From a virus (Duplodnaviria; Heunggongvirae; Uroviricota; Caudoviricetes): a stretch of DNA of 11,202 bases. The translations under genes were made by a program, and so were the position numbers. The notes below the pieces were generated by a model. The model saw only the letters and a list, made by a program, of their open reading frames with translations. It had not been told where the DNA came from and made no database searches. Positions 1,948-11,202 of the stretch are shown here, piece after piece. Numbering within the stretch: the first letter of the stretch is position 1; the number at the start of each line of letters is the position of its first letter. The DNA lies in the IMG/VR virus record IMGVR_UViG_3300002026_000057; one strand, written 5' to 3'.

Positions 1948-2748
1948 TTAAACAACATAGTTGTAATATAAAAATTCTGTTTTTGTTTTTGGTTTAAAAT
2001 TTCCGTCTATGGTCTTTACTTCAAAACTAACCCTCTTAAATCCATTATCCATCAACTTGTCATAAAGGTCACAATGATATCCACTAATAAGAATCTTTGC
2101 CTCACTCTTAATGACAGTGTCTATGAACTCAATATGTCCCTGTCTGTCCATATCAACCTTATATCGGGTACTGGTTCGTGTGGATTGTTCATATGGAGGA
2201 TCAGCATAGATAAAAACATTTTTCCTGTTATATTTTTCGATTAATTTTGTCCCATCCATATTGGTTACAATAACTTTGGAAAGTCTATCATGTAGTTCTG
2301 ACAACCTATCAATAGAAGACAAAAAATCGGAAATCGATTTACTCATTCCTCTTCTGATGTATGTATTCTTTGAGAAGCCTCCAACCCCATTATGAGATGT
2401 ACGATTCACATAAAAAAAACAAAAAGCCCGCTCGTCTATTGGTAAGTCGTTACGTTTTAGTTTTTCCTTGAGTTCTGATCGAATGTCTTCTGAATAAAAG
2501 GCAAGATCACATCTTTCTTTAAATACTTTAAACATATCCGGGTCAGATAACACCTTATATAAAGAATATACATTTTGATCCATATCATTGTATATCTCAA
2601 TAGGAACGGGATCTTTCTTTAATCCAATGCTGTATGAACCCCCAAATGGTTCTATGTATGTGTCATATTCTTCCCTGTTTGGGAAATATTCAATTATATT
2701 GTTGAACATTGTTCCTTTTCCTCCAAAATACTTAATGGGTGAATTCAT
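1948..2748 (-). CDS. dam: Dam/D12-class N6-adenine DNA methyltransferase (orphan; target unknown)
   Basis: N-terminal SPIKYFGGK (motif X), YIEPFGGS (SAM-binding motif I), EIYNDMD (motif II) and IYADPPY (catalytic motif IV) in alpha-class order. The start overlaps the upstream stop (TAATG at 2746-2750). Symbol denotes family only; GATC specificity is not established. Confidence 0.92.
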   Translation of the reverse strand: MNSPIKYFGGKGTMFNNIIEYFPNREEYDTYIEPFGGSYSIGLKKDPVPIEIYNDMDQNVYSLYKVLSDPDMFKVFKERCDLAFYSEDIRSELKEKLKRNDLPIDERAFCFFYVNRTSHNGVGGFSKNTYIRRGMSKSISDFLSSIDRLSELHDRLSKVIVTNMDGTKLIEKYNRKNVFIYADPPYEQSTRTSTRYKVDMDRQGHIEFIDTVIKSEAKILISGYHCDLYDKLMDNGFKRVSFEVKTIDGNFKPKTKTEFLYYNYVV

Positions 2749-3935
2749 TAAATTAAATTATTTTCAATCATTTTATCAATTACCATTTTAGGTGATATCT
2801 TTCTAGTACATTCAAAATTTTTATTAGTGGGGCAAAAATCTTTATGATGACAACATAAATTATCTGCATGTTCTTCAGAGTTATAGCACCCGCCACAAAC
2901 ATTCTCATTTTTGATTCTTATATTATCTTCTTGGAATTCATTCGACACAACGGTAAATCCAGAAATCATAACTGTTTTTTTACCAAGAGCCCAATTTAAC
3001 CAAGATAATCCTGAGCTAACACCAATGAAAAATTCAGCATGTTTCATATATTGCATCCTATCAATTAATGTGTAGTCACCGTTTCTTTTAATAATACCAT
3101 TTAATTCTGATTTTTCCTTAGAAATTGATATAATTTCATATCCCCTACTTTTTAATTCACTTATAAGATTCTTCCATCCCACTTGATTGTTCCACAATTT
3201 CATTGTTGGCCCTGAAGCGAATTCTGAAATACAAATATATTTCCCCATTATTGGACGATCTAAATTTATCTCAAAATGTGGCCTTATTTCTTTATATTCC
3301 AACCCCAGTACATTAGACACCTGTTTTTGTATTGGTATCAATAAAGGATGTTCGGGATTATTATCCACATCAAAAAATGTTAGTCCCTTAATATATTTTA
3401 CGGGTACTTTATTATATATGTTATTGTGGGAGTTATTAATTTTATCAATTCCTTTATCAAATGTATCCATATCTATTCCAATGGACACACTATAATGTGC
3501 GTATTGTACACCATATTCATTTAGTGGTAATCCAATATTCATCCATTTAATATTAGGATAATAATCTTTAAGAAACCACCAAAAATTAGTTGCAACCGTT
3601 AAATTACAATTATGTTTTTTTCTAAATTCTTCAAAATATGGAGCGTGGGCTATATTATCCCCCAAAGCCCTACTCGTTGAAGCTATTAGAACATTTTTCC
3701 CTCGACAATCAAATGTTTCAGTAAATACCTCAATCCCATTATGGAGAACAACAATCTTCCATTCCGTAAAATATTTCCTATTTGATCTTGTCCAATGATT
3801 ACAAGTAATTTCAGATTGATGAATTAATGTATTAGTTTTATTATCAAAAAATTGAACCAAATATACGTTATTATCTTCTCCAAGAATTTCAAGAGATGCA
3901 CCATAATTAAAATCTGAAATAAATTTAGTTTCCAT
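2748..3935 (-). CDS. Autotransporter strand-loop-strand O-heptosyltransferase (Aah/TibC, BAHT family) homologue, divergent paralogue 1
   Basis: SRALGDNIAHAPYFEEFRKKHNC (catalytic Asp loop), KLWNNQVGW, FIGVSSGLSWLNWALG, VMISGFT and C-terminal Cys cluster VCGGCYN...FCP...FECTRKISP. The N-terminal beta-rich segment aligns by eye with paralogue 2 (NHWTRSNRKYFTEWKI vs NHWTRANKKYYIDWKI). Confidence 0.88.
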   Translation of the reverse strand: METKFISDFNYGASLEILGEDNNVYLVQFFDNKTNTLIHQSEITCNHWTRSNRKYFTEWKIVVLHNGIEVFTETFDCRGKNVLIASTSRALGDNIAHAPYFEEFRKKHNCNLTVATNFWWFLKDYYPNIKWMNIGLPLNEYGVQYAHYSVSIGIDMDTFDKGIDKINNSHNNIYNKVPVKYIKGLTFFDVDNNPEHPLLIPIQKQVSNVLGLEYKEIRPHFEINLDRPIMGKYICISEFASGPTMKLWNNQVGWKNLISELKSRGYEIISISKEKSELNGIIKRNGDYTLIDRMQYMKHAEFFIGVSSGLSWLNWALGKKTVMISGFTVVSNEFQEDNIRIKNENVCGGCYNSEEHADNLCCHHKDFCPTNKNFECTRKISPKMVIDKMIENNLI

Positions 3936-3939
3936 CTAT

Positions 3940-3971
3940 AAAATATAATTAAAATAATCTATATTACCAAA
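3940..3971 (-). promoter_or_regulatory. Near-consensus Bacteroidota sigma-A promoter for the heptosyltransferase-dam-PcfJ unit
   Basis: Minus strand TTTG (3968-3971), 20-nt spacer, TATATTTT (3940-3947; consensus TAnnTTTG with the last base mismatched), ending 4 nt before the ATG at 3935. Confidence 0.45.
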
Positions 3972-3978
3972 TATTTAT
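3970..3978 (+). promoter_or_regulatory. AATAYTTAY motif, copy 1 (candidate phage promoter) upstream of DUF192
   Basis: AATATTTAT, 4 nt before the ATG at 3983; part of the 12-mer CCAAATATTTAT (3967-3978), which recurs exactly at 9265-9276. Confidence 0.5.
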
Positions 3979-3982
3979 AACC

Positions 3983-4357
3983 ATGAGTGTACACATAAAC
4001 GGAAAAACTTTTAACGCTGAATACCTTAAACCCGACCAATTTTCAAAGGGTATGCAAGGTCGAAATAACCTTGATGGTTGTATGGTATTTAAAATGGGAA
4101 AAGGTCACCATTCATTTTGGATGAAAGGTTGCATAATTCCATTAGATATCATTTTTGTATTAAACAAACGAATCAGTATGATTCATCATAATTGTCCAAT
4201 TGAAGACCCTCATCGGATGAATCCGCCTCGTTATACTGGATTAGGGGATCATGTCCTCGAATTCCCTGGCGGAACGTGTAAAGATTGGAAAGTGGGGGAC
4301 AGAGTTAATATGTATCTCGGAGCCCCACAAAATCCTATTAGTCCGAGAGTAGTGTAG
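3983..4357 (+). CDS. DUF192 (COG1430) family protein
   Basis: KGMQGR...GCMVF...HSFWMKGCIIPLDIIFV...YVLE-like HVLEFPGG...KVGDRV matches the DUF192 pattern GLM-x-R...GMLF...FWMKN-x2-IPLDI-x-F. The 3' end overlaps the convergent gene by 20 nt (4338-4357). Confidence 0.9.
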   Translation: MSVHINGKTFNAEYLKPDQFSKGMQGRNNLDGCMVFKMGKGHHSFWMKGCIIPLDIIFVLNKRISMIHHNCPIEDPHRMNPPRYTGLGDHVLEFPGGTCKDWKVGDRVNMYLGAPQNPISPRVV

Positions 4358-4769
4358 ACAGTTTTTCGAGCTCTATATTAGTTCTCTTGTCTTCACTCAT
4401 CAAACTATTTAATTTCTTTTCAACTTCCCTCAATTCATTAACCTGACGTTGTGCCTGATTTTGTTTAATCTTTAATACAATATCATCCCTCCAATCTTCC
4501 AAAGTGAATCCGTGCCATGCGTTGTTAAAAACAACATCATATTTTTCAGCAACACTTTGAGATTTTTCAATTCTTGTTTCTAGATCCACTAGAATACTGA
4601 ACAAGAGTTCCGGGGTTGCAACGTTCAAATTTATCCTTGTTTGTGTACCATCTATCGGTAAGGATAAATTGGTTTTAAATGAAGGGTTTTTTATCTTTGA
4701 GATTTGAGCCTTCTTTTCTTCAACTTTCGTTAAAAGTTGTAACACTAAGTTGTCATTTTTCTTTGCCAT
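4338..4769 (-). CDS. Hypothetical 143-aa protein, coiled-coil at both ends
   Basis: Open frame coupled to the upstream gene by TAATG (4767-4771). Heptad-like VNELREVEKKLNSLMSEDKRTNIELEKL and a central GFTLEDWRDDI segment. Confidence 0.8.
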   Translation of the reverse strand: MAKKNDNLVLQLLTKVEEKKAQISKIKNPSFKTNLSLPIDGTQTRINLNVATPELLFSILVDLETRIEKSQSVAEKYDVVFNNAWHGFTLEDWRDDIVLKIKQNQAQRQVNELREVEKKLNSLMSEDKRTNIELEKLSTLLSD

Positions 4770-5920
4770 TATACTATTTTTTTAAATCCATTTTTATATA
4801 CTCTTACTAACATTCCATAATTCTGCATTAATTCTTCTTTGGAGAAAGTTCCTTCGGAAGTAGTATTATTTCTTGTGTGCCAAGAATATACCGAATTAGT
4901 ATCCCGATAAATTTCATATTCTTCGAAAGGCGCGTTGGTTCTTTTTATATTTTTCCTTGAGTTCACAAAATCCTCAAGAGTTCTTATATTCCCAAACCTA
5001 TAAACATAGGTACTATAATACAAACCCCTTTCGAAATGTTCTTTCAACCATTTTTCACTAAAAGGCTCAACCACCAAATGATCCGCCAAAGAAGCATAAA
5101 TGGAATTCAAGAATGTATCAACATAATCAGGAAACTTAGGATTTGGCGATTCGGAAATACATTTCTTTATCAAATTCATTGAAGAAACAAATTCATATCT
5201 TAATCCTTCTTCCTCAGTATCATGTGTAACAAAAACATGCTTCTTTTGGGGAGTAACAACGTAGTTTCTATCTTTTTCTATTTTTGTAACATTATTGTAT
5301 GTGTCTTCATATACATTGTATCGACCTATATAAACCCATTCTTGCATTCTGCCAGTAAGATAGGTATATCCCTCTTTCAGATCTCTTGCACTGAATTTTA
5401 CTGACTGCAAATCTGTGAATTCTTTACACATTTTATAATCGGGGGAAGATACAGGTAATAACACCAAATCCTTACCATCCCAAGAATAAACAAATTCACC
5501 CTCTAGTCCTTTACCCTTATAAGAACTACATTCTTGAAGGATATAAAGAAGATTTGGAATTGTAATTTCAAACTCCCATCCCCTTGGGTCATAAACCCTG
5601 GAATAGGTTTGACGATGATTCCAACCACTACTGTAACCTCCGGCTTTTTTGTTTAAGACAAACCCTTCGGTTGGAACATTATCAAATTCAATTGGTTTAA
5701 CACTATCATCGTGAATACCCTCTTCACGTACTCCGGATTCAGAATTCCACGTAGCATAAGGACTACCTTCTTTATGCCTCCAACTCTCCCAAGACCCCTC
5801 TTTCCTCCAAACTTTACCATCGTGATAAATGATATAACCTAACTTACCTGTGTAAGTGTCACCGCGTTTCTGTAACCCGACTTTACATTTTTCGGGAATA
5901 AATAATTGTGTTTTTGACAT
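4769..5920 (-). CDS. Hypothetical 383-aa phage-type protein with a Trp/Gly/Tyr/Arg-rich N-terminal domain
   Basis: Long open frame with TAATG overlaps at both ends. The N-terminal segment (RKEGSWESWR, GFVLNKKAGG, WNHRQ, RVYDPRGWEFEIT..NLL.IL, GEFVYSWDGKDLVLLP) looks like a conserved domain; no function recognised. Confidence 0.85.
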   Translation of the reverse strand: MSKTQLFIPEKCKVGLQKRGDTYTGKLGYIIYHDGKVWRKEGSWESWRHKEGSPYATWNSESGVREEGIHDDSVKPIEFDNVPTEGFVLNKKAGGYSSGWNHRQTYSRVYDPRGWEFEITIPNLLYILQECSSYKGKGLEGEFVYSWDGKDLVLLPVSSPDYKMCKEFTDLQSVKFSARDLKEGYTYLTGRMQEWVYIGRYNVYEDTYNNVTKIEKDRNYVVTPQKKHVFVTHDTEEEGLRYEFVSSMNLIKKCISESPNPKFPDYVDTFLNSIYASLADHLVVEPFSEKWLKEHFERGLYYSTYVYRFGNIRTLEDFVNSRKNIKRTNAPFEEYEIYRDTNSVYSWHTRNNTTSEGTFSKEELMQNYGMLVRVYKNGFKKIV

Positions 5921-7062
5921 TATAATTTTACTTTAGAATTAGACATTACTCCCTGAACAATAAGTTCAACGAAATCGATTGAATCGGGGGAATATGAATT
6001 ATATATTTTTTTGAATTTTGTATTCAATTTCTCATATTCAAACCGGAAATTTTTTCTTTGATCAAGGCAGGTTACCACAAGATTTTTGGGTAAACCATCG
6101 GAATATATATTATCGAGTTCGAATGAATGGTTAAGCAAGTCATAATCAATTTCACTAACCTTGAAATTCTTTTGCCATTCGTTGAACTTATTAATTTCAT
6201 CTTCAGTGTTAATGAGTTCAATTTTATCTTCGTTACTCATCCACCCAGCCCCATGTCTTGTTTGATAACAACGTGTGATATAGAATACTTCAATATCATC
6301 TATTCCAAGATTTCTGGCAATTGTAATAGCGTTTTTTGATGTGGTGTTGGAATATGTGACATTAGGAAATATTCCATGATCCATATCCAATAAAATACCC
6401 TGAGAACCTTCGAAAACTATGTTCTCATATTGTTTTAAGAAACTGTAAGGTTTAACATTGAATTCAATCTTTTCAACGTACTTCCAGAAGTATGTTGATT
6501 CCTCATCATAGATTTCTTTTAATTTCTTTAATTTCGGATAATCGTCTCCGATTAAATCCACATAATACTTGTATACCGAATTAACCTTTTCTTTAAGTGA
6601 AGGTAAATGTAATAGATCAACGCCATATACTTTATAAGGAGTTTCGATATTTCTTTTCATTGTTGCTCCCACACCAAGGCCACACGACCCATGATTAGTG
6701 ATTGGGGCAATTAATCGGTTGTATGCAACATCGGCAGGCGTCGTTACATTAACCAATGGATGGATATAAAATTCAATTTGACCGATTTTTTCGTACAACT
6801 CATATGCTTCTCGATACATCGTAACAGGATATATACTGCAATAATGAGATAAATAGGAGGGCACACCTCTCAGTGTGCCACTCCCAAAACTTGAATGAAT
6901 ATGACTAACGCCATTGATTTTAACATTATGACCAGCCTGTTGACCACCAGAAAATCTGACGACAATAGTTGATTTTGGATTTTTACTACAAAGGAAATCG
7001 GTTGTTATACCTTTTCCTTCATCACCCCAAATTGATCCGATTACAATCTTAGCGTTATTCAT
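5920..7062 (-). CDS. purA: Divergent adenylosuccinate synthetase (PurA)-like GTP-dependent ligase
   Basis: P-loop WGDEGKG, RFSGGQQAGH, HGSCGLGVG, FEGSQGILLDMDHG.FP.VT.SNTT, YQTRHGAG and VTCLD all align to PurA motifs. The aspartate-binding loop (EFGATTGRxRR in E. coli) is replaced by EINKFNEWQKNFK. Family is certain, canonical activity doubtful. Confidence 0.9.
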   Translation of the reverse strand: MNNAKIVIGSIWGDEGKGITTDFLCSKNPKSTIVVRFSGGQQAGHNVKINGVSHIHSSFGSGTLRGVPSYLSHYCSIYPVTMYREAYELYEKIGQIEFYIHPLVNVTTPADVAYNRLIAPITNHGSCGLGVGATMKRNIETPYKVYGVDLLHLPSLKEKVNSVYKYYVDLIGDDYPKLKKLKEIYDEESTYFWKYVEKIEFNVKPYSFLKQYENIVFEGSQGILLDMDHGIFPNVTYSNTTSKNAITIARNLGIDDIEVFYITRCYQTRHGAGWMSNEDKIELINTEDEINKFNEWQKNFKVSEIDYDLLNHSFELDNIYSDGLPKNLVVTCLDQRKNFRFEYEKLNTKFKKIYNSYSPDSIDFVELIVQGVMSNSKVKL

Positions 7063-7068
7063 AGTTTC

Positions 7069-7221
7069 TTATTCAGCAGGTTCGTTTTCCTGTGGTTCAG
7101 TCGTTACAACATCTTCAGTAGTTTCATTAACTACTTCAGTTGTTTCTTTAACCACTTCTTTTGCGTCGTCGGCAGCCATTTCCTCGAAAGACTGCGGATT
7201 GTTTCTGTTAACAGTTCCCAT
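7069..7221 (-). CDS. Small acidic protein, 50 aa (MGTVNRNNPQSFEEMAADDAKEVVKETTEVVNETTEDVVTTEPQENEPAE)
   Basis: Fills the gap between vWA and the PurA-like gene: ATG 2 nt after the vWA stop, TAA 6 nt before the PurA-like ATG. 14 D/E vs 3 K/R. Below the ORF-track length cutoff. Confidence 0.7.
   Translation of the reverse strand: MGTVNRNNPQSFEEMAADDAKEVVKETTEVVNETTEDVVTTEPQENEPAE
7099..7158 (-). repeat. In-frame 21-bp tandem repeat (EVVKETT / EVVNETT / degenerate EDVVTT)
   Basis: Units 7138-7158 and 7117-7137 are 18/21 identical; a degenerate third unit lies at 7099-7116. Confidence 0.75.
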
Positions 7222-7223
7222 AG

Positions 7224-8117
7224 TTATAACATAATTTTTGGTTCATCTTTTTTCTTAGTACCACTATCTGTGTCACTGATAACAGGTGACGACTTAGTGT
7301 CGTGAGAGATTCTTGACTCATAGTGAGAGACAATTGTATTTGCAATAACTTCACCTACTTTGGTGTAATCATTAACCTGAATACAACGTTGCCCAAGAAG
7401 TTTTTGCCAATATCCAAGTGAAGAGTGACCATTAGATCCTTCCATAATATGGATGTGGAAAACTTCATATTTCTCCTGAGCCATTTCAAGGAGTTCTTTA
7501 TCGGTATAATTTGACTGAGCACCGTTACCCATAAGTTCATCGATCGCGTTTTTCGGCAAAGTCCTCAAACAAGGTTCATCACCAATGGTAAAAAGGAAAC
7601 CCTTCTCACCACGCTTTTCAAATGCGTCGGTAACGGTATGTTTAGCTGCGAAATACCAAGCCAAAAAATAACTTTCACCAGCGTTACCACCACCACGACC
7701 TTCAAGCCATGTCCGGGTTAACCACAAATCAAGTTCTTCATCACCGCTTTCGAATTGACCAACCTGTAATGGAGCGTTATCATATTCATGATCACCAATT
7801 CCTAAGAAAAGGATGGAAGGATCAGAAATACCTTTTTGAATGAGATTACCAACCATATTTGGAAGTCCGTCCTTTACTAATTCGTGAGGAATTTTCCTCA
7901 TAGAACCAGTCTCATCAAGACCTATAATGATCGGTAAAGATTTTGGATGTGCAACGGAATCTCTGGCTTCACGAATAAGAGCCTTTGAAGGTACCATTGA
8001 CTCATGGATCTCACCTTTCTTATTTTGTACAAAAATATCGTCAGCGGATTTGGTGTAATAGCCCATTGAGGCTCCGCGAACTGTACGACTTTCGTGGCTA
8101 TACGAGCTATGACCCAT
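7224..8117 (-). CDS. von Willebrand factor A (vWA) domain protein with intact MIDAS
   Basis: Beta1-MIDAS PIIIGLDETGSM, then FLGIGD, EGRGGGNAGESY and FLFTIGDEP in vWA order. N-terminal MGHSSYS extension and REARDS..HP.S segment. Confidence 0.85.
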   Translation of the reverse strand: MGHSSYSHESRTVRGASMGYYTKSADDIFVQNKKGEIHESMVPSKALIREARDSVAHPKSLPIIIGLDETGSMRKIPHELVKDGLPNMVGNLIQKGISDPSILFLGIGDHEYDNAPLQVGQFESGDEELDLWLTRTWLEGRGGGNAGESYFLAWYFAAKHTVTDAFEKRGEKGFLFTIGDEPCLRTLPKNAIDELMGNGAQSNYTDKELLEMAQEKYEVFHIHIMEGSNGHSSLGYWQKLLGQRCIQVNDYTKVGEVIANTIVSHYESRISHDTKSSPVISDTDSGTKKKDEPKIML

Positions 8118-8476
8118 TATTCAACTCCTCCCGTAAAAAGTTCGGAATATCTTTTGGAAGCGATATCCAACTTAATTTCAAGTTCACGAATCCTAAGACC
8201 GAGTTCGAGGTCTTTTGCAACAAATGCTTTTGCATTGAAATCGGATTGTGAAATAATTGTGGTTGTTGAAGTTCCTCCGAGATCCAACATAGCATCACGT
8301 TCCCGTTTTGCAACTTTGAGTTCGGTTAAAATGTCTTCAACTTCACGTTTGAAAATGAGTTCAGCGTCTTCGGCAATTGCCAAGGCACGGTCGTCACGAA
8401 TCTGTTTGTTGTTCCTTCTTAATGAGGACACGAATGAACCTTTAAGTTCATTTAATTGTTCTGATGGTGTTTCCAT
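8117..8476 (-). CDS. Hypothetical 119-aa helical/coiled-coil protein, first gene of the operon
   Basis: A-rich initiation region (AAAAATTAAAAAAA-ATG), downstream of a consensus promoter, TAATG-coupled to vWA. Amphipathic heptads (REVEDILTELKVAKRERDAMLDL; LGLRIRELEIKLDIASKRYSELF). Confidence 0.85.
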   Translation of the reverse strand: METPSEQLNELKGSFVSSLRRNNKQIRDDRALAIAEDAELIFKREVEDILTELKVAKRERDAMLDLGGTSTTTIISQSDFNAKAFVAKDLELGLRIRELEIKLDIASKRYSELFTGGVE

Positions 8477-8501
8477 TTTTTTTAATTTTTAATTGTTATT
8501 A

Positions 8502-8515
8502 TGTGATTTATCACA
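8502..8515. promoter_or_regulatory. Palindromic operator-like site TGTGAT-TT-ATCACA
   Basis: Perfect 6-bp inverted repeat with a 2-nt centre, lying between the -7 element (8527-8534) and the first ATG (8476) of the operon; no U-tract follows on either strand. Confidence 0.5.
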
Positions 8516-8526
8516 AATTGAAAGTA

Positions 8527-8558
8527 CAAAAATAAATAATGTTTTTGAGACTGCCAAA
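8527..8558 (-). promoter_or_regulatory. Bacteroidota sigma-A consensus promoter for the vWA/PurA-like operon
   Basis: Minus strand TTTG (8555-8558), 20-nt spacer, TATTTTTG (8527-8534); an exact match to the Bacteroides/Flavobacterium consensus TTTG-N19-21-TAnnTTTG. Confidence 0.8.
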
Positions 8559-8561
8559 TTT

Positions 8562-9206
8562 TTAGAAAAGATATTTTACTTTAGGTTTAGTTTTTTCGAG
8601 AACTATGAAATAAGAATGAAATTTTCTGGCATGTTCTTGTTTATTCCACTTGCCGCCAAAACTATTAATACGCATTTTTGCTACTAAAATAAACAGGTCT
8701 CTTGGATAAAACCCAATTTTCAACGCCATATTCATAATCATCACATGAGTAAAATGATTTTTACCACCTGAAACGGTATCCTGACATTTCATTATTACTA
8801 ACCCATCTTTCTCGCAGACCCGATAAAGCTCTTGTAATGTATTATAATAGTTGGTGGTTAATTTCTCATATGTGGTATAGCCCTCGAATCTCTTGGCAAT
8901 AACTGAACTACCCTCTTTGTTTTCTTTGTACATTTTACCACTTATTACAAATGGTGGATCATACATTATACTTTTCATTGTTCCGTCTTCAAACGGTAAA
9001 TTCTCAGAATCGGCTTGGATTGTATCTTCGGTTATTGGCACTAAATCGGTTTTAATTTTCGGCCCCTTTATATCTTTCCAAAATAATCCACGGGAATATG
9101 TACAATCAAGATCAAACTGTTCAATGTTATACAATTCCATTATATTCTTAATAACATCGTGGTTTGTATAATACACACTCCTTACGGGTACAAAGTCTTT
9201 ATCCAT
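8562..9206 (-). CDS. Small phage-type amino (m6A or m4C) DNA methyltransferase (orphan)
   Basis: SAM-binding DLDCTYSRGLFW (DxTY-G/S-xGxFW type), ADSENLPFEDG, and catalytic SIMYDPPF, in motif I then motif IV order. DNA as the substrate is inferred from the family. Confidence 0.8.
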   Translation of the reverse strand: MDKDFVPVRSVYYTNHDVIKNIMELYNIEQFDLDCTYSRGLFWKDIKGPKIKTDLVPITEDTIQADSENLPFEDGTMKSIMYDPPFVISGKMYKENKEGSSVIAKRFEGYTTYEKLTTNYYNTLQELYRVCEKDGLVIMKCQDTVSGGKNHFTHVMIMNMALKIGFYPRDLFILVAKMRINSFGGKWNKQEHARKFHSYFIVLEKTKPKVKYLF

Positions 9207-9237
9207 TTACTTTTTATTTTAATTTTAGTATCTTGGA

Positions 9238-9269
9238 CAAAGATAACGCAAATAAATAATAATTCCAAA
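9238..9269 (-). promoter_or_regulatory. Bacteroidota sigma-A consensus promoter for the second methyltransferase
   Basis: Minus strand TTTG (9266-9269), 20-nt spacer, TATCTTTG (9238-9245); an exact consensus match, followed by a short A-rich leader to the ATG at 9206. Confidence 0.82.
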
Positions 9270-9276
9270 TATTTAT
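9268..9276 (+). promoter_or_regulatory. AATAYTTAY motif, copy 2, upstream of GIY-YIG
   Basis: AATATTTAT, 15 nt before the ATG at 9292; within CCAAATATTTAT, which is shared with 3967-3978. Confidence 0.5.
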
Positions 9277-9291
9277 TAAAAAAGAACTAAT

Positions 9292-9879
9292 ATGGGTTGT
9301 GGGATATACAAGATTGAAAATTCAATTGATGGTAAAATTTATATTGGTAGTTCAGTTAATATTGAATCTCGACAATACAAACATTTTTGGATGTTGAAAC
9401 GTGGATGTCATGATAACCAACATTTACAAAACGCTTTTAATAAATTTAAAGAAAAATCTTTTAATTTTCAAATAATTGAACAGTGCAATGAAACAAAATT
9501 AATTGAAAGAGAAAACTTCCATATTGCCACACTTAAATCGAATACATCCGAATTTGGCTATAATCTTGCGACTGTTAATGAATTTAGAAGAAACACATAC
9601 AATGACTCTGTTAAAATAAAACTTTCGAGATATAATAAGATTAAAAATGGAAATTTTAATACATTTTCATTAACGAACATTAAAACAAATGATATGTTTA
9701 TGTTTGACACATTGGTTGAAGGAGCTAATTATTTAATTTTAAATGGATTTGCAAAAGGAAAACCTCGAAATGTGAGAATGTCAATTTCCAATTGCTTGCG
9801 AGGAATAAAAGTGGATAACGGATCTAAGGGATCAATACGGAAAACTTGTTATAAACATAATTTTGAAATAATAAACTAA
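9292..9879 (+). CDS. Free-standing GIY-YIG homing-type endonuclease with C-terminal NUMOD1/HTH-like DNA-binding module
   Basis: GIYKIENSIDGKIYIGSS, then R and H (ESRQYKH), HDNQHLQNAFNK, catalytic Glu in LIERENFHI, and EFGYNL: the I-TevI/Seg-type catalytic domain. C-terminal FDTLVEGANYL...SISNCLRG...KTCYKHNF resembles a NUMOD1-type HTH. Confidence 0.93.
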   Translation: MGCGIYKIENSIDGKIYIGSSVNIESRQYKHFWMLKRGCHDNQHLQNAFNKFKEKSFNFQIIEQCNETKLIERENFHIATLKSNTSEFGYNLATVNEFRRNTYNDSVKIKLSRYNKIKNGNFNTFSLTNIKTNDMFMFDTLVEGANYLILNGFAKGKPRNVRMSISNCLRGIKVDNGSKGSIRKTCYKHNFEIIN

Positions 9880-9882
9880 ATT

Positions 9883-9891
9883 AATACTTAC
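9883..9891 (+). promoter_or_regulatory. AATAYTTAY motif, copy 3, upstream of the MGCGC protein
   Basis: AATACTTAC, 4 nt before the TTG at 9896, the same spacing as copy 1. AATACTTACTAAA is 11/13 identical to AATATTTATTAAA at 9268-9280. Confidence 0.45.
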
Positions 9892-9895
9892 TAAA

Positions 9896-10087
9896 TTGGG
9901 TTGTGGATGCAAGAAAAAGAAAGATACGGCTGAAGTTGCAACAAGAACAGCAACGGTTGTCGTTACTGAAGGACAAATAAAAGAGGTACCCCAACGTCCA
10001 CCTCAAGTTGTGACACCCCCAACATCACAACCAAAAAATGATGTTGAGAGTATCGTAAATAAGCTTAACAATATTTTAAAACCTTAA
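9896..10087 (+). CDS. Small 63-aa protein with an N-terminal MGCGCKKKK motif and a Thr/Pro-rich linker (TTG start)
   Basis: Fills the gap between GIY-YIG and the convergent gene; its TAA (10085-10087) abuts the opposite-strand TAG (10088-10090). Structured composition: CxC plus polybasic, T/V/P-rich middle, amphipathic C-terminal helix (VESIVNKLNNILK). Confidence 0.7.
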   Translation: MGCGCKKKKDTAEVATRTATVVVTEGQIKEVPQRPPQVVTPPTSQPKNDVESIVNKLNNILKP

Positions 10088-11200
10088 CTATAATCCGAGT
10101 GCAAGGTTTATTTGTTCAATAACGGTATCGGATGTAATCATTTTAGTACACTCGAATTGTCTATCTGTACCTTTATGGTCGGGACACCAATTCCAATCTC
10201 CAGCGTCCAAAATATGTCTATTAAAACAACCATGACACACATCTTCATTTATTATTCTTCGAATCCCATTTAATGGTTCACAATATGGTTCAGAAAACCC
10301 TGAGATTAATATGGTTTCAGTTCCAACCGCCCAAGCTAACCAAGACAAACCACTACCAACACCAATAAACAATTCTGATTCTTGAAGAATTTTAATAACA
10401 TTCTCAAGAGATCCTGATGGAACTTTGGTAATGCCTTTAGGGTGTTTGTTTCCCATATATCCGTCTTCTTCTTTAGAGACAAGTTTTACTTCGTACCCTT
10501 TTAATACTAAATAATCAACAATTTCTTGCCAACCAGTTGGATTGTTCCAATATTTGGATTGTGCGGTTGAATGAATACCTATTGAAACCACTTTCTTTTT
10601 TTCTGTACTTAATACTGGTAGTAACGGTCTTAATTCAACATAATCTAATCCAAGTATGTCGGATGCGGTTTTACTTAGTGGTTCAGTTTTTGGGTCAAAT
10701 TTGTTTTTATCAAAATCCACTTTATTATCTTTACGAAACCAACCCACTCTATATAGTGCGTAGATATCCTTAACCGTTGATCCTGGTTCAACAAATTCAA
10801 TATTTGGGTATTGATCTTTGAAAAGATTATTATGAAATGTTGAACAAATCACAGTACAATTATGCTCTATTCTAAATTTTTCAACATATGGAATCCACGC
10901 TAATGTGTCTCCTAATGATTTAGACTCAAACCCAATTAAAACCCTACGATTGTTAAAGTCCATTTTATGTTCATAGAAAAAATCAGTATCTAACCCTCTT
11001 ATTCGTATTTTCCAATCAATATAGTATTTCTTGTTTGCCCTTGTCCAATGATTACTTTTAAGATCTGTTTGATGATGAACCTCCCCAGTTTTTAAATCGA
11101 TAAACTCAACATTATAATATCTCGTATTTTTGTCGATAATTTCGACGAAGGGCCCATCTATAAAATTAATATTTAACTGATCTGGGGCGTTCTTTTCCAT
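10088..11200 (-). CDS. Autotransporter strand-loop-strand O-heptosyltransferase (Aah/TibC, BAHT family) homologue, canonical paralogue 2; may extend 5' beyond the window
   Basis: SKSLGDTLAWIPYVEKFR..HNC, STAQSKYWNNPTGWQ, FIGVGSGLSWLAWAVG, ILISGFS and Fe-site VCHGCFN...WCPDHKGTDRQFECTKMIT. Only 2 nt lie upstream of the ATG at 11200, so an N-terminal extension cannot be excluded. Confidence 0.93.
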   Translation of the reverse strand: MEKNAPDQLNINFIDGPFVEIIDKNTRYYNVEFIDLKTGEVHHQTDLKSNHWTRANKKYYIDWKIRIRGLDTDFFYEHKMDFNNRRVLIGFESKSLGDTLAWIPYVEKFRIEHNCTVICSTFHNNLFKDQYPNIEFVEPGSTVKDIYALYRVGWFRKDNKVDFDKNKFDPKTEPLSKTASDILGLDYVELRPLLPVLSTEKKKVVSIGIHSTAQSKYWNNPTGWQEIVDYLVLKGYEVKLVSKEEDGYMGNKHPKGITKVPSGSLENVIKILQESELFIGVGSGLSWLAWAVGTETILISGFSEPYCEPLNGIRRIINEDVCHGCFNRHILDAGDWNWCPDHKGTDRQFECTKMITSDTVIEQINLALGL

Positions 11201-11202
11201 TT

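Follow-up and report, generated by a model that had tools for sequence, protein, structure and literature searches.

Two TibC/Aah-like glycosyltransferases at the end of a phage contig and their probable place in a fibre-glycosylation module

The two enzymes: family, fold and functional residues

The stretch of DNA analysed here, from IMG/VR virus record IMGVR_UViG_3300002026_000057 and referred to below as the window, makes up the terminal 11,202 nt of a contig 75,202 nt in length (64,000 + 11,202), and carries on its minus strand two genes whose products resemble the Escherichia coli bacterial autotransporter heptosyltransferases (BAHTs) TibC and AAH. The first, GT1 (P0001; 2748..3935, minus strand), encodes a stand-alone glycosyltransferase of 395 residues, while the second, GT2 (P0002; 10088..11200, minus strand), encodes a TibC/Aah-like domain of 370 residues as read. 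Their stop codons are 7.3 kb apart and 6.15 kb of DNA lies between the two genes, in agreement with an earlier note on this DNA, which had placed two such genes, each with an LGD loop and a Cys site, about 6 kb from one another. PHROG matches and hundreds of IMG/VR relatives agree in indicating a large uncultured phage as the source of the contig; no near-identical phage record was found for the window, nor any exact match in viral or metagenome contigs, and look-ups of the exact GT1 and GT2 proteins gave no hit either.

Profile searches and structural models confirm GT1 and GT2 as genuine full-length glycosyltransferases of the BAHT (TibC/Aah-type) family, as the earlier note had proposed. 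GT1 matches TibC (PDB 4RAP/4RB4) over its whole length (E 1.6e-38) and GT2 does so over residues 6-363 (E 3.1e-55), and both exceed the curated equivalog cut-off of 200 bits of the NCBIfam model TIGR04414, with scores of 241.2 and 292.5 bits, respectively; for comparison, a 406-aa E. coli plasmid homologue, whose gene adjoins that of its partner autotransporter adhesin, scores 622 bits. The AlphaFold (AF2) models were predicted with mean local distance difference test (pLDDT) values of 90 for GT1 and 92 for GT2, and both exhibit the architecture of the BAHT protomer, i.e., an N-terminal beta-barrel, a GT-B catalytic domain and an iron finger. Full-length template modelling (TM) scores to all chains of 4RAP and 4RB4 range from 0.78 to 0.88 (approximately 0.8 for GT1 and 0.86-0.88 for GT2), the next fold in line being that of WaaC, with a TM score of approximately 0.5. 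Among Pfam families, PF21129 (TibC_1st) matches GT1 weakly, while PF01075 (GT9) returned weak matches for both proteins. Both are predicted to be cytoplasmic.

Residue numbers of TibC were transferred via the above-mentioned 406-aa plasmid homologue, which carries every residue named in the structural study of TibC (PMC4358343) and which at position 300 possesses a Ser, as in AAH, rather than a Pro. That study identified Asp110, within the LGD motif, as the catalytic base, Thr226 and Lys230 as beta-phosphate ligands, Trp305 as the residue contacting the heptose O4, and Arg286 as contacting the adenine N1, its replacement by Ala having abolished or largely diminished activity; four Cys residues (339, 342, 358 and 370) bind iron, the N-terminal beta-barrel and the iron finger bind the protein substrate, and a beta-hairpin thumb with a hydrophobic tip (Phe265-Val266) is required for dodecamer formation (PMC4358343). 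By alignment, the catalytic base corresponds to Asp93 of GT1 (codon 3657..3659, minus strand) and Asp98 of GT2 (codon 10907..10909, minus strand), a residue that is invariant in 91 GT1-clade and 57 GT2-clade members. Lys230, Trp305, Phe368 and the four Cys residues are likewise kept in GT1 and GT2, and are invariant in both clades. The beta-phosphate ligands of GT2 are T212 and K216, while GT1 presents K246 together with a Ser in place of Thr226, located in a loop that is one residue longer and is remodelled to SGPTMK where TibC has STCQAK; a Ser at this position is also seen in an E. coli plasmid BAHT. The Trp305 equivalents are W312 (GT1) and W287 (GT2), and Arg286 is kept in GT1 as R293 (and in 89 of 91 members of its clade), all five TibC ligand residues being kept or conservatively replaced in GT1.

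The iron-finger regions were located by the same alignment at 2808..2897 (minus strand) for GT1, with the pattern C347-x2-C350 ... C368-x7-C376, and at 10148..10237 (minus strand) for GT2, with the pattern C322-x2-C325-x13-C339-x11-C351; the four Cys residues are invariant in the 46 GT1-clade and 42 GT2-clade members examined. The Cys spacing of GT2 is TibC-like, whereas that of GT1 (x2/x17/x7) is accompanied by two extra Cys residues (C361 and C362) and by His residues, and its second knuckle is remodelled relative to that of TibC. The first Rossmann-like half of GT1 is furthermore followed by an insertion of approximately 55 residues, and the thumb of GT1, which ends in an Ile-Ile tip, is a hairpin 9 residues shorter than that of TibC. 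The GT2 thumb was read from a phmmer alignment, in which GYMGNKHPKG aligns to GFVWNHIPWG of TibC, and GT2-type proteins probably possess a TibC-like thumb; an Asn-Lys tip, as suggested by the corresponding MAFFT column, was rejected, MAFFT having shifted this stretch by 3 residues.

These deviations raise the question of whether one copy is catalytically dead, being either a scaffold or substrate-binding partner or a gene in decay, and the Val of GT2 at the Arg286 position, as well as the remodelled phosphate loop, the shortened thumb and the altered Cys spacing of GT1, may be read in this way. Such a loss of activity nonetheless appears very unlikely: the peculiarities are conserved clade-wide in dozens of diverged sequences, in which the equivalents of Asp110, Lys230 and Trp305 are invariant, and both open reading frames (ORFs) are intact and both models confident.

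Phylogeny of the two enzymes and the start of GT2

The earlier note had treated the two genes as a pair of paralogues. GT1 and GT2 are, however, only 34% identical, and in a tree of 161 rows, including two E. coli BAHTs, they fall into two old and separate clades. GT1 is one of 92 stand-alone proteins of 390-400 residues that group together with a support of 100, while GT2 is placed in a clade of 57 (support 99), of which 47 members are C-terminal domains of longer proteins; these are usually fusions of 700-1300 residues in all, with GT4 and methyltransferase domains as partners. The two E. coli BAHTs form a long branch outside both phage clades. A recent tandem duplication is ruled out because of this low identity and the separation of the clades.

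Metagenome protein sets contain many GT1-type proteins, with identities of 45-84%, while among 185,579 bacterial and archaeal species, each represented by one genome, the best match is only 40% identical; as far as these collections show, the GT1 clade would thus be confined to phage-like contigs. In IMG/VR, an alignment query returned only two true GT1-type loci and a search with the single GT1 protein returned none. From 448 IMG/VR contigs with a confirmed relative, 79 loci with GT2-type genes were drawn, and in most of these the GT2-type gene occurs without a GT1-type counterpart; conversely, a second paralogue is situated within 10 kb of the GT1-type gene in five of nine contexts. Because each gene occurs without the other in some phages, the hetero-oligomer suggested in the earlier note is, in an obligate form, unlikely on comparative grounds, and GT1 and GT2 probably act independently or one after the other.

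The protein cluster of GT1 is recorded on a contig of 75,202 nt, at the end of which the window lies. No complete codon of the frame precedes the ATG of GT2, which lies 2 nt from this contig end, and GT2 may therefore represent only the C-terminal domain of a longer protein. Approximately 85% of 81 phage homologues of GT2 possess at least 300 additional N-terminal residues, and the orthologues in the three syntenic relatives described below (58-60% identity) are C-terminal or internal domains of proteins of 701, 913 and 1125 residues. Against truncation, a few stand-alone homologues share this start point and open with a sequence resembling that of GT2 (MEDN...). On balance, the comparison makes it likely that GT2 is the 5'-truncated piece of a longer fusion protein. 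Any feature that touches position 11202 is cut by the assembly and not by biology.

Gene order, syntenic relatives and candidate acceptors

All long ORFs of the window but two are located on the minus strand. In the order of transcription, GT2 is followed by a GIY-YIG homing endonuclease gene (9292-9879, plus strand) and by a gene for a 214-aa N6/N4-type DNA methylase (8562..9206, minus strand; PF01555, phrog_24333), which is outside the glycosylation system and serves as a syntenic landmark between GT2 and GT1. A block at 5920-8476 (minus strand) comprises a 119-aa ORF, a gene for a 297-aa phrog_2971 protein with a vWA-like DxSGS motif, and a PurA-like gene (5920-7062, minus strand) assigned from Pfam and PHROG profile matches. 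Between the latter and the DUF192 gene are two genes of unknown function (4338-5920, minus strand), i.e., phrog_2475 (383 aa) and phrog_2574 (143 aa), while the DUF192 gene itself (3983..4357, plus strand; PF02643) is a second landmark just upstream of GT1. GT1 is followed by a gene for a Dam-type DNA adenine methylase (1948..2748, minus strand; PF02086, phrog_56), whose start overlaps the GT1 stop in the sequence TAATG (window 2746-2750), and last by that of a PcfJ-like protein, which runs off the window on the minus strand. No autotransporter, collagen-like or Ser/Thr-rich region is present in any ORF of the window, and an autotransporter gene is likewise absent from the neighbours examined in related phage loci; profile searches thus bear out the statement in the earlier note that the window holds no autotransporter substrate. 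A scan for promoters and terminators gave no useful information, with 73 promoter-like sites where 55 were expected and 3 terminator-like sites where 5.9 were expected.

The backbone of the window is shared by three contigs, designated L184 (IMG/VR, 20 kb), L081/L188 (ENA, 342 kb) and L185/L189 (NCBI assembly, 89 kb). Identities to the window proteins amount to 83% (Dam), 80% (214-aa methylase), 73% (DUF192) and 60% (GT2 domain) in L184, from which GT1 is absent, and to 74, 80, 70 and 59%, respectively, in L081/L188, where GT1 is 73% identical; L185/L189 possesses the Dam, 214-aa methylase and DUF192 genes, with GT2-domain and GT1 identities of 58% each. In these relatives the genes are arranged as a module that starts with a fibre gene, followed by genes for a B12-binding radical-SAM protein, a 210-239-aa protein, a GT4 protein with FkbM and a small methyltransferase; it continues with the GT2-domain protein, the 214-aa methylase, a variable insert, DUF192 (on the opposite strand), GT1, Dam and PcfJ. 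The radical-SAM gene heads the module in all three (L184:8612-9904; L188:6008-7241; L189:1193-2425), and a radical-SAM family recurs in approximately 30 other loci. The upstream part of the corresponding module in the present phage probably lies beyond the contig end.

The fibre genes of the relatives encode Laminin_G_3 (LamG_3) proteins with long Thr/Ser/Pro repeats of the TPSITPS type, Ser, Thr and Pro together accounting for 30-46% of residues, and the L189 fibre carries a C-terminal Peptidase_S74 chaperone domain. L184 possesses in addition a giant version (L184:927-8618), a protein of 2563 residues (18% Ser, 16% Thr and 11% Pro) with three Laminin_G_3 domains, a Pel9A-like beta-helix and TPSLSIS-type repeats that extend over hundreds of residues; its gene is directly preceded by a Gly-Thr/Ser-Ser collagen-like ORF, which only L184 of the three relatives possesses.

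The insert between the two transferase genes differs between these relatives. Its three-gene block (119-121-aa, 293-297-aa vWA-like phrog_2971 and 378-380-aa PurA-like products) is shared by the window and L189 (L189:10284-12676) and is absent from L081 and L184, while the phrog_2475 and phrog_2574 genes and the GIY-YIG endonuclease gene are found in the window only and in none of the three. Because the insert varies in this way, sequence comparison indicates that the 6-kb spacing of GT1 and GT2 arises from unrelated inserted genes. The gap between GT2 and the methylase holds the GIY-YIG endonuclease in the window and, in an IMG/VR relative (L008:11157-12113), a gene for a different endonuclease, a 318-aa NUMOD3 protein, on the other strand, and from its sequence it looks like a recurrent homing site. 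At the other end, the 1-nt junction of GT1 and Dam is kept in L185 (L185:11173) although GT1 is only 58% identical there, while in L081 a 52-aa ORF lies between the two genes and Dam is split in two; the GT1-Dam neighbourhood is conserved in the window's lineage only.

The conserved junction with Dam, as well as the N6/N4 methylase, PurA-like and homing endonuclease genes that lie between GT1 and GT2, would suit a role of one or both enzymes in glycosylating a modified base of phage DNA. Several observations make such DNA hypermodification highly improbable. The window contains no hydroxymethylase, base kinase or other hypermodification enzyme, and its PurA-like protein, which scores 122 bits against a PurA cut-off of 402, is no PurZ either, scoring 44 bits where 300 are required. 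The intervening genes vary as described above, and outside this lineage both clades occur in sugar and fibre clusters rather than DNA clusters. Both enzymes have a protein O-glycosyltransferase fold: no phage DNA glycosyltransferase family (T4 alpha/beta-GT type) is among the Pfam, PHROG or NCBIfam matches of the window proteins, and no phage DNA glucosyltransferase is among the top 50 structural matches of the GT1 and GT2 models.

Across the 79 IMG/VR loci, the TibC-like domains are fused to GT4, FkbM, GT2-family and CmcI-type domains, and their neighbours include 2-oxoglutarate-Fe(II) (2OG-Fe(II)) oxygenases, a radical-SAM enzyme, a GT2-family enzyme and an aminotransferase, together with nucleoside diphosphate (NDP)-sugar epimerases/dehydratases and a cytidylyltransferase-like protein. 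A collagen and Peptidase_S74 fibre gene is situated directly downstream of the transferase in 31 of these loci. Runs of at least 10 G-X-Y triplets occur in the flanks of 59 of 103 dereplicated TibC-like loci, with 64% Ser, 22% Thr and almost no Pro at the X and Y positions; such an ORF lies at most 500 nt from the transferase in 16 of the 59, compared to approximately 5% expected under an even spread over the flanks, an association judged on the distance distribution within loci only. In approximately 40 loci, the TibC-like fusions are preceded by a series of small 2OG-Fe(II) oxygenase paralogues of 156-200 aa (e.g., L012:3365-3841), numbering as many as four or five, although the nearby collagen-like repeats are nearly proline-free.

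GT1-type genes are found in clusters with GT4, FkbM, CmcI, DegT, PglD-like, carbamoyltransferase and other GT9 genes, and are adjoined by genes for LamG_3 proteins. One such gene, in L187, is located in an unrelated context away from fibre genes, and the LamG proteins beside the GT1-type genes of L177 and L186 contain no Ser/Thr-rich tracts. Together with the occurrence of GT1 and GT2 each without the other, this would suit enzymes that modify some other protein, be it an internal or non-structural phage protein or a cytoplasmic host protein, with the proximity to fibre genes being incidental in this lineage. Such a target is considered improbable, given that the order of module plus fibre gene is kept in all three syntenic relatives and that fibre genes immediately follow the transferase in the 31 loci mentioned above.

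A further alternative is that the enzymes remodel the host surface, altering the lipopolysaccharide (LPS) core, the O-chain, the capsule or a host surface protein and thereby blocking superinfection or masking receptors. GT9 is the family of the LPS heptosyltransferases, which is in keeping with the weak PF01075 matches, glycosyltransferases among the tail-fibre genes of pelagimyophages have been read in this manner (PMC7029224), and the window contains no acceptor. This role is nevertheless judged unlikely. The scores of GT1 and GT2 against LPS heptosyltransferase models are 19-32 bits where the cut-offs are at least 185 (for TIGR02193, cut-off 185, the two values are 19 and 32 bits), while the TIGR04414 cut-off is passed, and the beta-barrel and iron finger, i.e., the protein-substrate binders of TibC, are retained. 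Lipid-linked export would need multi-pass membrane proteins, and the absence of such proteins, including flippase-, polymerase- or ligase-like ones, from 73 of 81 loci and from the window, as judged by a crude hydrophobicity count, therefore counts against such a route. Moreover, fibre genes with Ser/Thr repeats are located close by.

Proposed role and relation to known glycosylation systems

The reading favoured here, with a rough probability of 0.6, is that GT1 and GT2 may be active cytoplasmic protein O-glycosyltransferases that decorate the phage's own virion fibres. It fits best because members of the family modify proteins, both enzymes have kept the modules that bind the substrate, the partner domains are of the glycan-building and sugar-methylating kind, and Ser/Thr-rich fibre genes are recurrent neighbours. 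Family membership, fold, retained catalytic residues, clade structure, synteny and the association with fibre and sugar genes in the relatives are shown by the data; which molecule accepts the sugar, which donor supplies it, in what order the enzymes act and what the missing DNA upstream encodes are what we infer from them. GT1 and GT2 would be the most downstream genes of a glycan module for fibre decoration that begins on DNA past the contig end. Late in infection, with the LGD Asp as base, they would transfer a sugar from an NDP-sugar donor to the Ser and Thr hydroxyls of repetitive fibre segments, after which GT4, GT2-family and methyltransferase domains, whether fused or encoded nearby, would lengthen the glycan and methylate it. 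The paralogues may work on their own or one after the other, and may differ in the sites that they modify or in the sugars that they add. For GT1, the donor would most likely be ADP-heptose, given the retained TibC ligand residues, while GT2, being devoid of Arg286, may use a nucleotide-sugar that is recognised differently.

A phage-made ADP-heptose donor is plausible from gene content, because split HldE-like genes adjoin the homologues in other phages. The earlier note had envisaged a phage-made or non-heptose donor, and both parts of this proposal hold up to a degree: the former is plausible on account of these HldE-like genes, the latter possible for GT2. Its further suggestion that the phage glycosylates its own virion proteins is favoured by the domain fusions, the NDP-sugar neighbours and the fibre genes of the relatives, while the window itself provides no acceptor for it.

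Several observations weigh against fibre glycosylation. The link to fibres rests on three relatives, whose glycosyltransferase orthologues are 58-73% identical, and on DNA that is absent from the window. Besides GT1 and GT2, the window contains no sugar-nucleotide or other glycan gene, the genes between the two serve DNA and nucleotide functions rather than structural ones, and Dam is translationally coupled to GT1. Arg286 is replaced by Val268 in GT2, and the entire GT2 clade has Val, Leu, Ile or Thr at this position. The split HldE-like pair, which adjoins TibC-like genes in 16-20 of the 79 loci, scores far below the equivalog cut-offs (110 bits for the kinase against TIGR02198 and 85 bits for the adenylyltransferase-like protein against TIGR02199), and the small protein is matched slightly better as a glycerol-3-phosphate cytidylyltransferase. 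For the collagen-like association, the control set built on Dam comprises 6 loci, too few for a background rate. Finally, no paper on phage BAHT-like enzymes and no experiment on any phage member was found in the searched literature. With the acceptor and most of the module presumably off the contig, this particular window is of limited value.

With TibC and AAH (E. coli BAHTs; TIGR04414; PDB 4RAP, 4RB4; PMC4358343), GT1 and GT2 share the beta-barrel, the GT-B domain, the four-Cys finger and, probably, the hairpin thumb, as well as the LGD Asp, Lys230, Trp305 and Phe368, at TM scores of approximately 0.8-0.88. They differ from them in being only 26-32% identical, with a long separate branch, and in that the phage possesses no autotransporter, the candidate acceptors instead being the Ser/Thr-rich collagen-like or mucin-like repeats of fibres. 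In addition, Arg286 is missing from GT2-type domains, which in most cases are joined to GT4 and methyltransferase domains, while the GT1 type has the thumb shortened by 9 residues, the insertion of approximately 55 residues and the remodelled second metal knuckle. The LPS heptosyltransferases WaaC and WaaF (GT9; PDB 2H1H, 1PSW) have in common with GT1 and GT2 the GT9 catalytic fold and the same ADP-heptose-type donor region, but they are devoid of the beta-barrel, thumb and iron finger, their acceptor is lipid A-Kdo rather than a protein, and the TM scores are 0.45-0.56.

Within the wider family, GT2 belongs to the fused GT4/FkbM-TibC group of the phages with proline-free Gly-Ser/Thr fibres; the window differs from these in containing no fibre gene and in carrying paralogues of two clades. 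Unlike in the collagen-fibre loci, the syntenic candidate acceptor in the window's lineage is a LamG/Peptidase_S74 fibre with TPS-type repeats. To our knowledge, BAHT-type protein O-heptosylation is known only for enterobacterial autotransporter adhesins. In mycobacteriophages, phage-encoded glycosyltransferases reportedly decorate the phage's own structural proteins, namely at capsid and tail-tube C-termini; the likeness to the present proposal lies in phage glycosyltransferases acting on the phage's own structural proteins, while the mycobacteriophage enzymes are said not to be of the GT9/BAHT type and to have neither an iron finger nor a link to heptose.

New in the present analysis are the two-clade structure, with its clade-specific changes in the donor site and in the oligomerisation elements, the LamG/TPS-repeat fibre as a syntenic candidate acceptor in this lineage, and the recognition that the apparent pair in the window is probably the cut-off tail of a larger module. 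The two clades also offer enzymologists naturally occurring variation in the donor site of TibC and in its oligomerisation elements. If the proposed role is true, virion glycosylation would reach well beyond a few mycobacteriophage cases. It would also assign a function to the large number of glycosyltransferase and methyltransferase genes in the tail-fibre regions of large aquatic phages, which are usually read as host LPS genes, and would add a further factor in the host range, stability and recognition of phage fibres. A more specific and rather tentative version of this proposal holds that large aquatic phages possess a two-enzyme, BAHT-derived O-glycosylation of tail fibres, in which a fusion-type enzyme of the GT2 clade, devoid of the adenine-binding Arg, and a stand-alone enzyme of the GT1 clade, with its shortened thumb and six-Cys knuckle, would modify mucin- or collagen-like Ser/Thr repeats with different sugars, or with one sugar at different sites, from phage-made ADP-heptose or a derivative thereof. 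In that case the phages would possess a first virion heptosylation system, and the BAHT fold a new acceptor class.

A possible experimental model for phage TibC-like enzymes is the cultured cyanophage Mel-JY01 of Microcystis, which encodes a 1226-aa protein annotated as 'methyltransferase FkbM' (L001:4750-8430), the last 360 residues of which are 50% identical to GT2. The gene for this FkbM-TibC fusion is located two genes downstream of that of an annotated structural protein and near a gene annotated as 'cytidylyltransferase like'.

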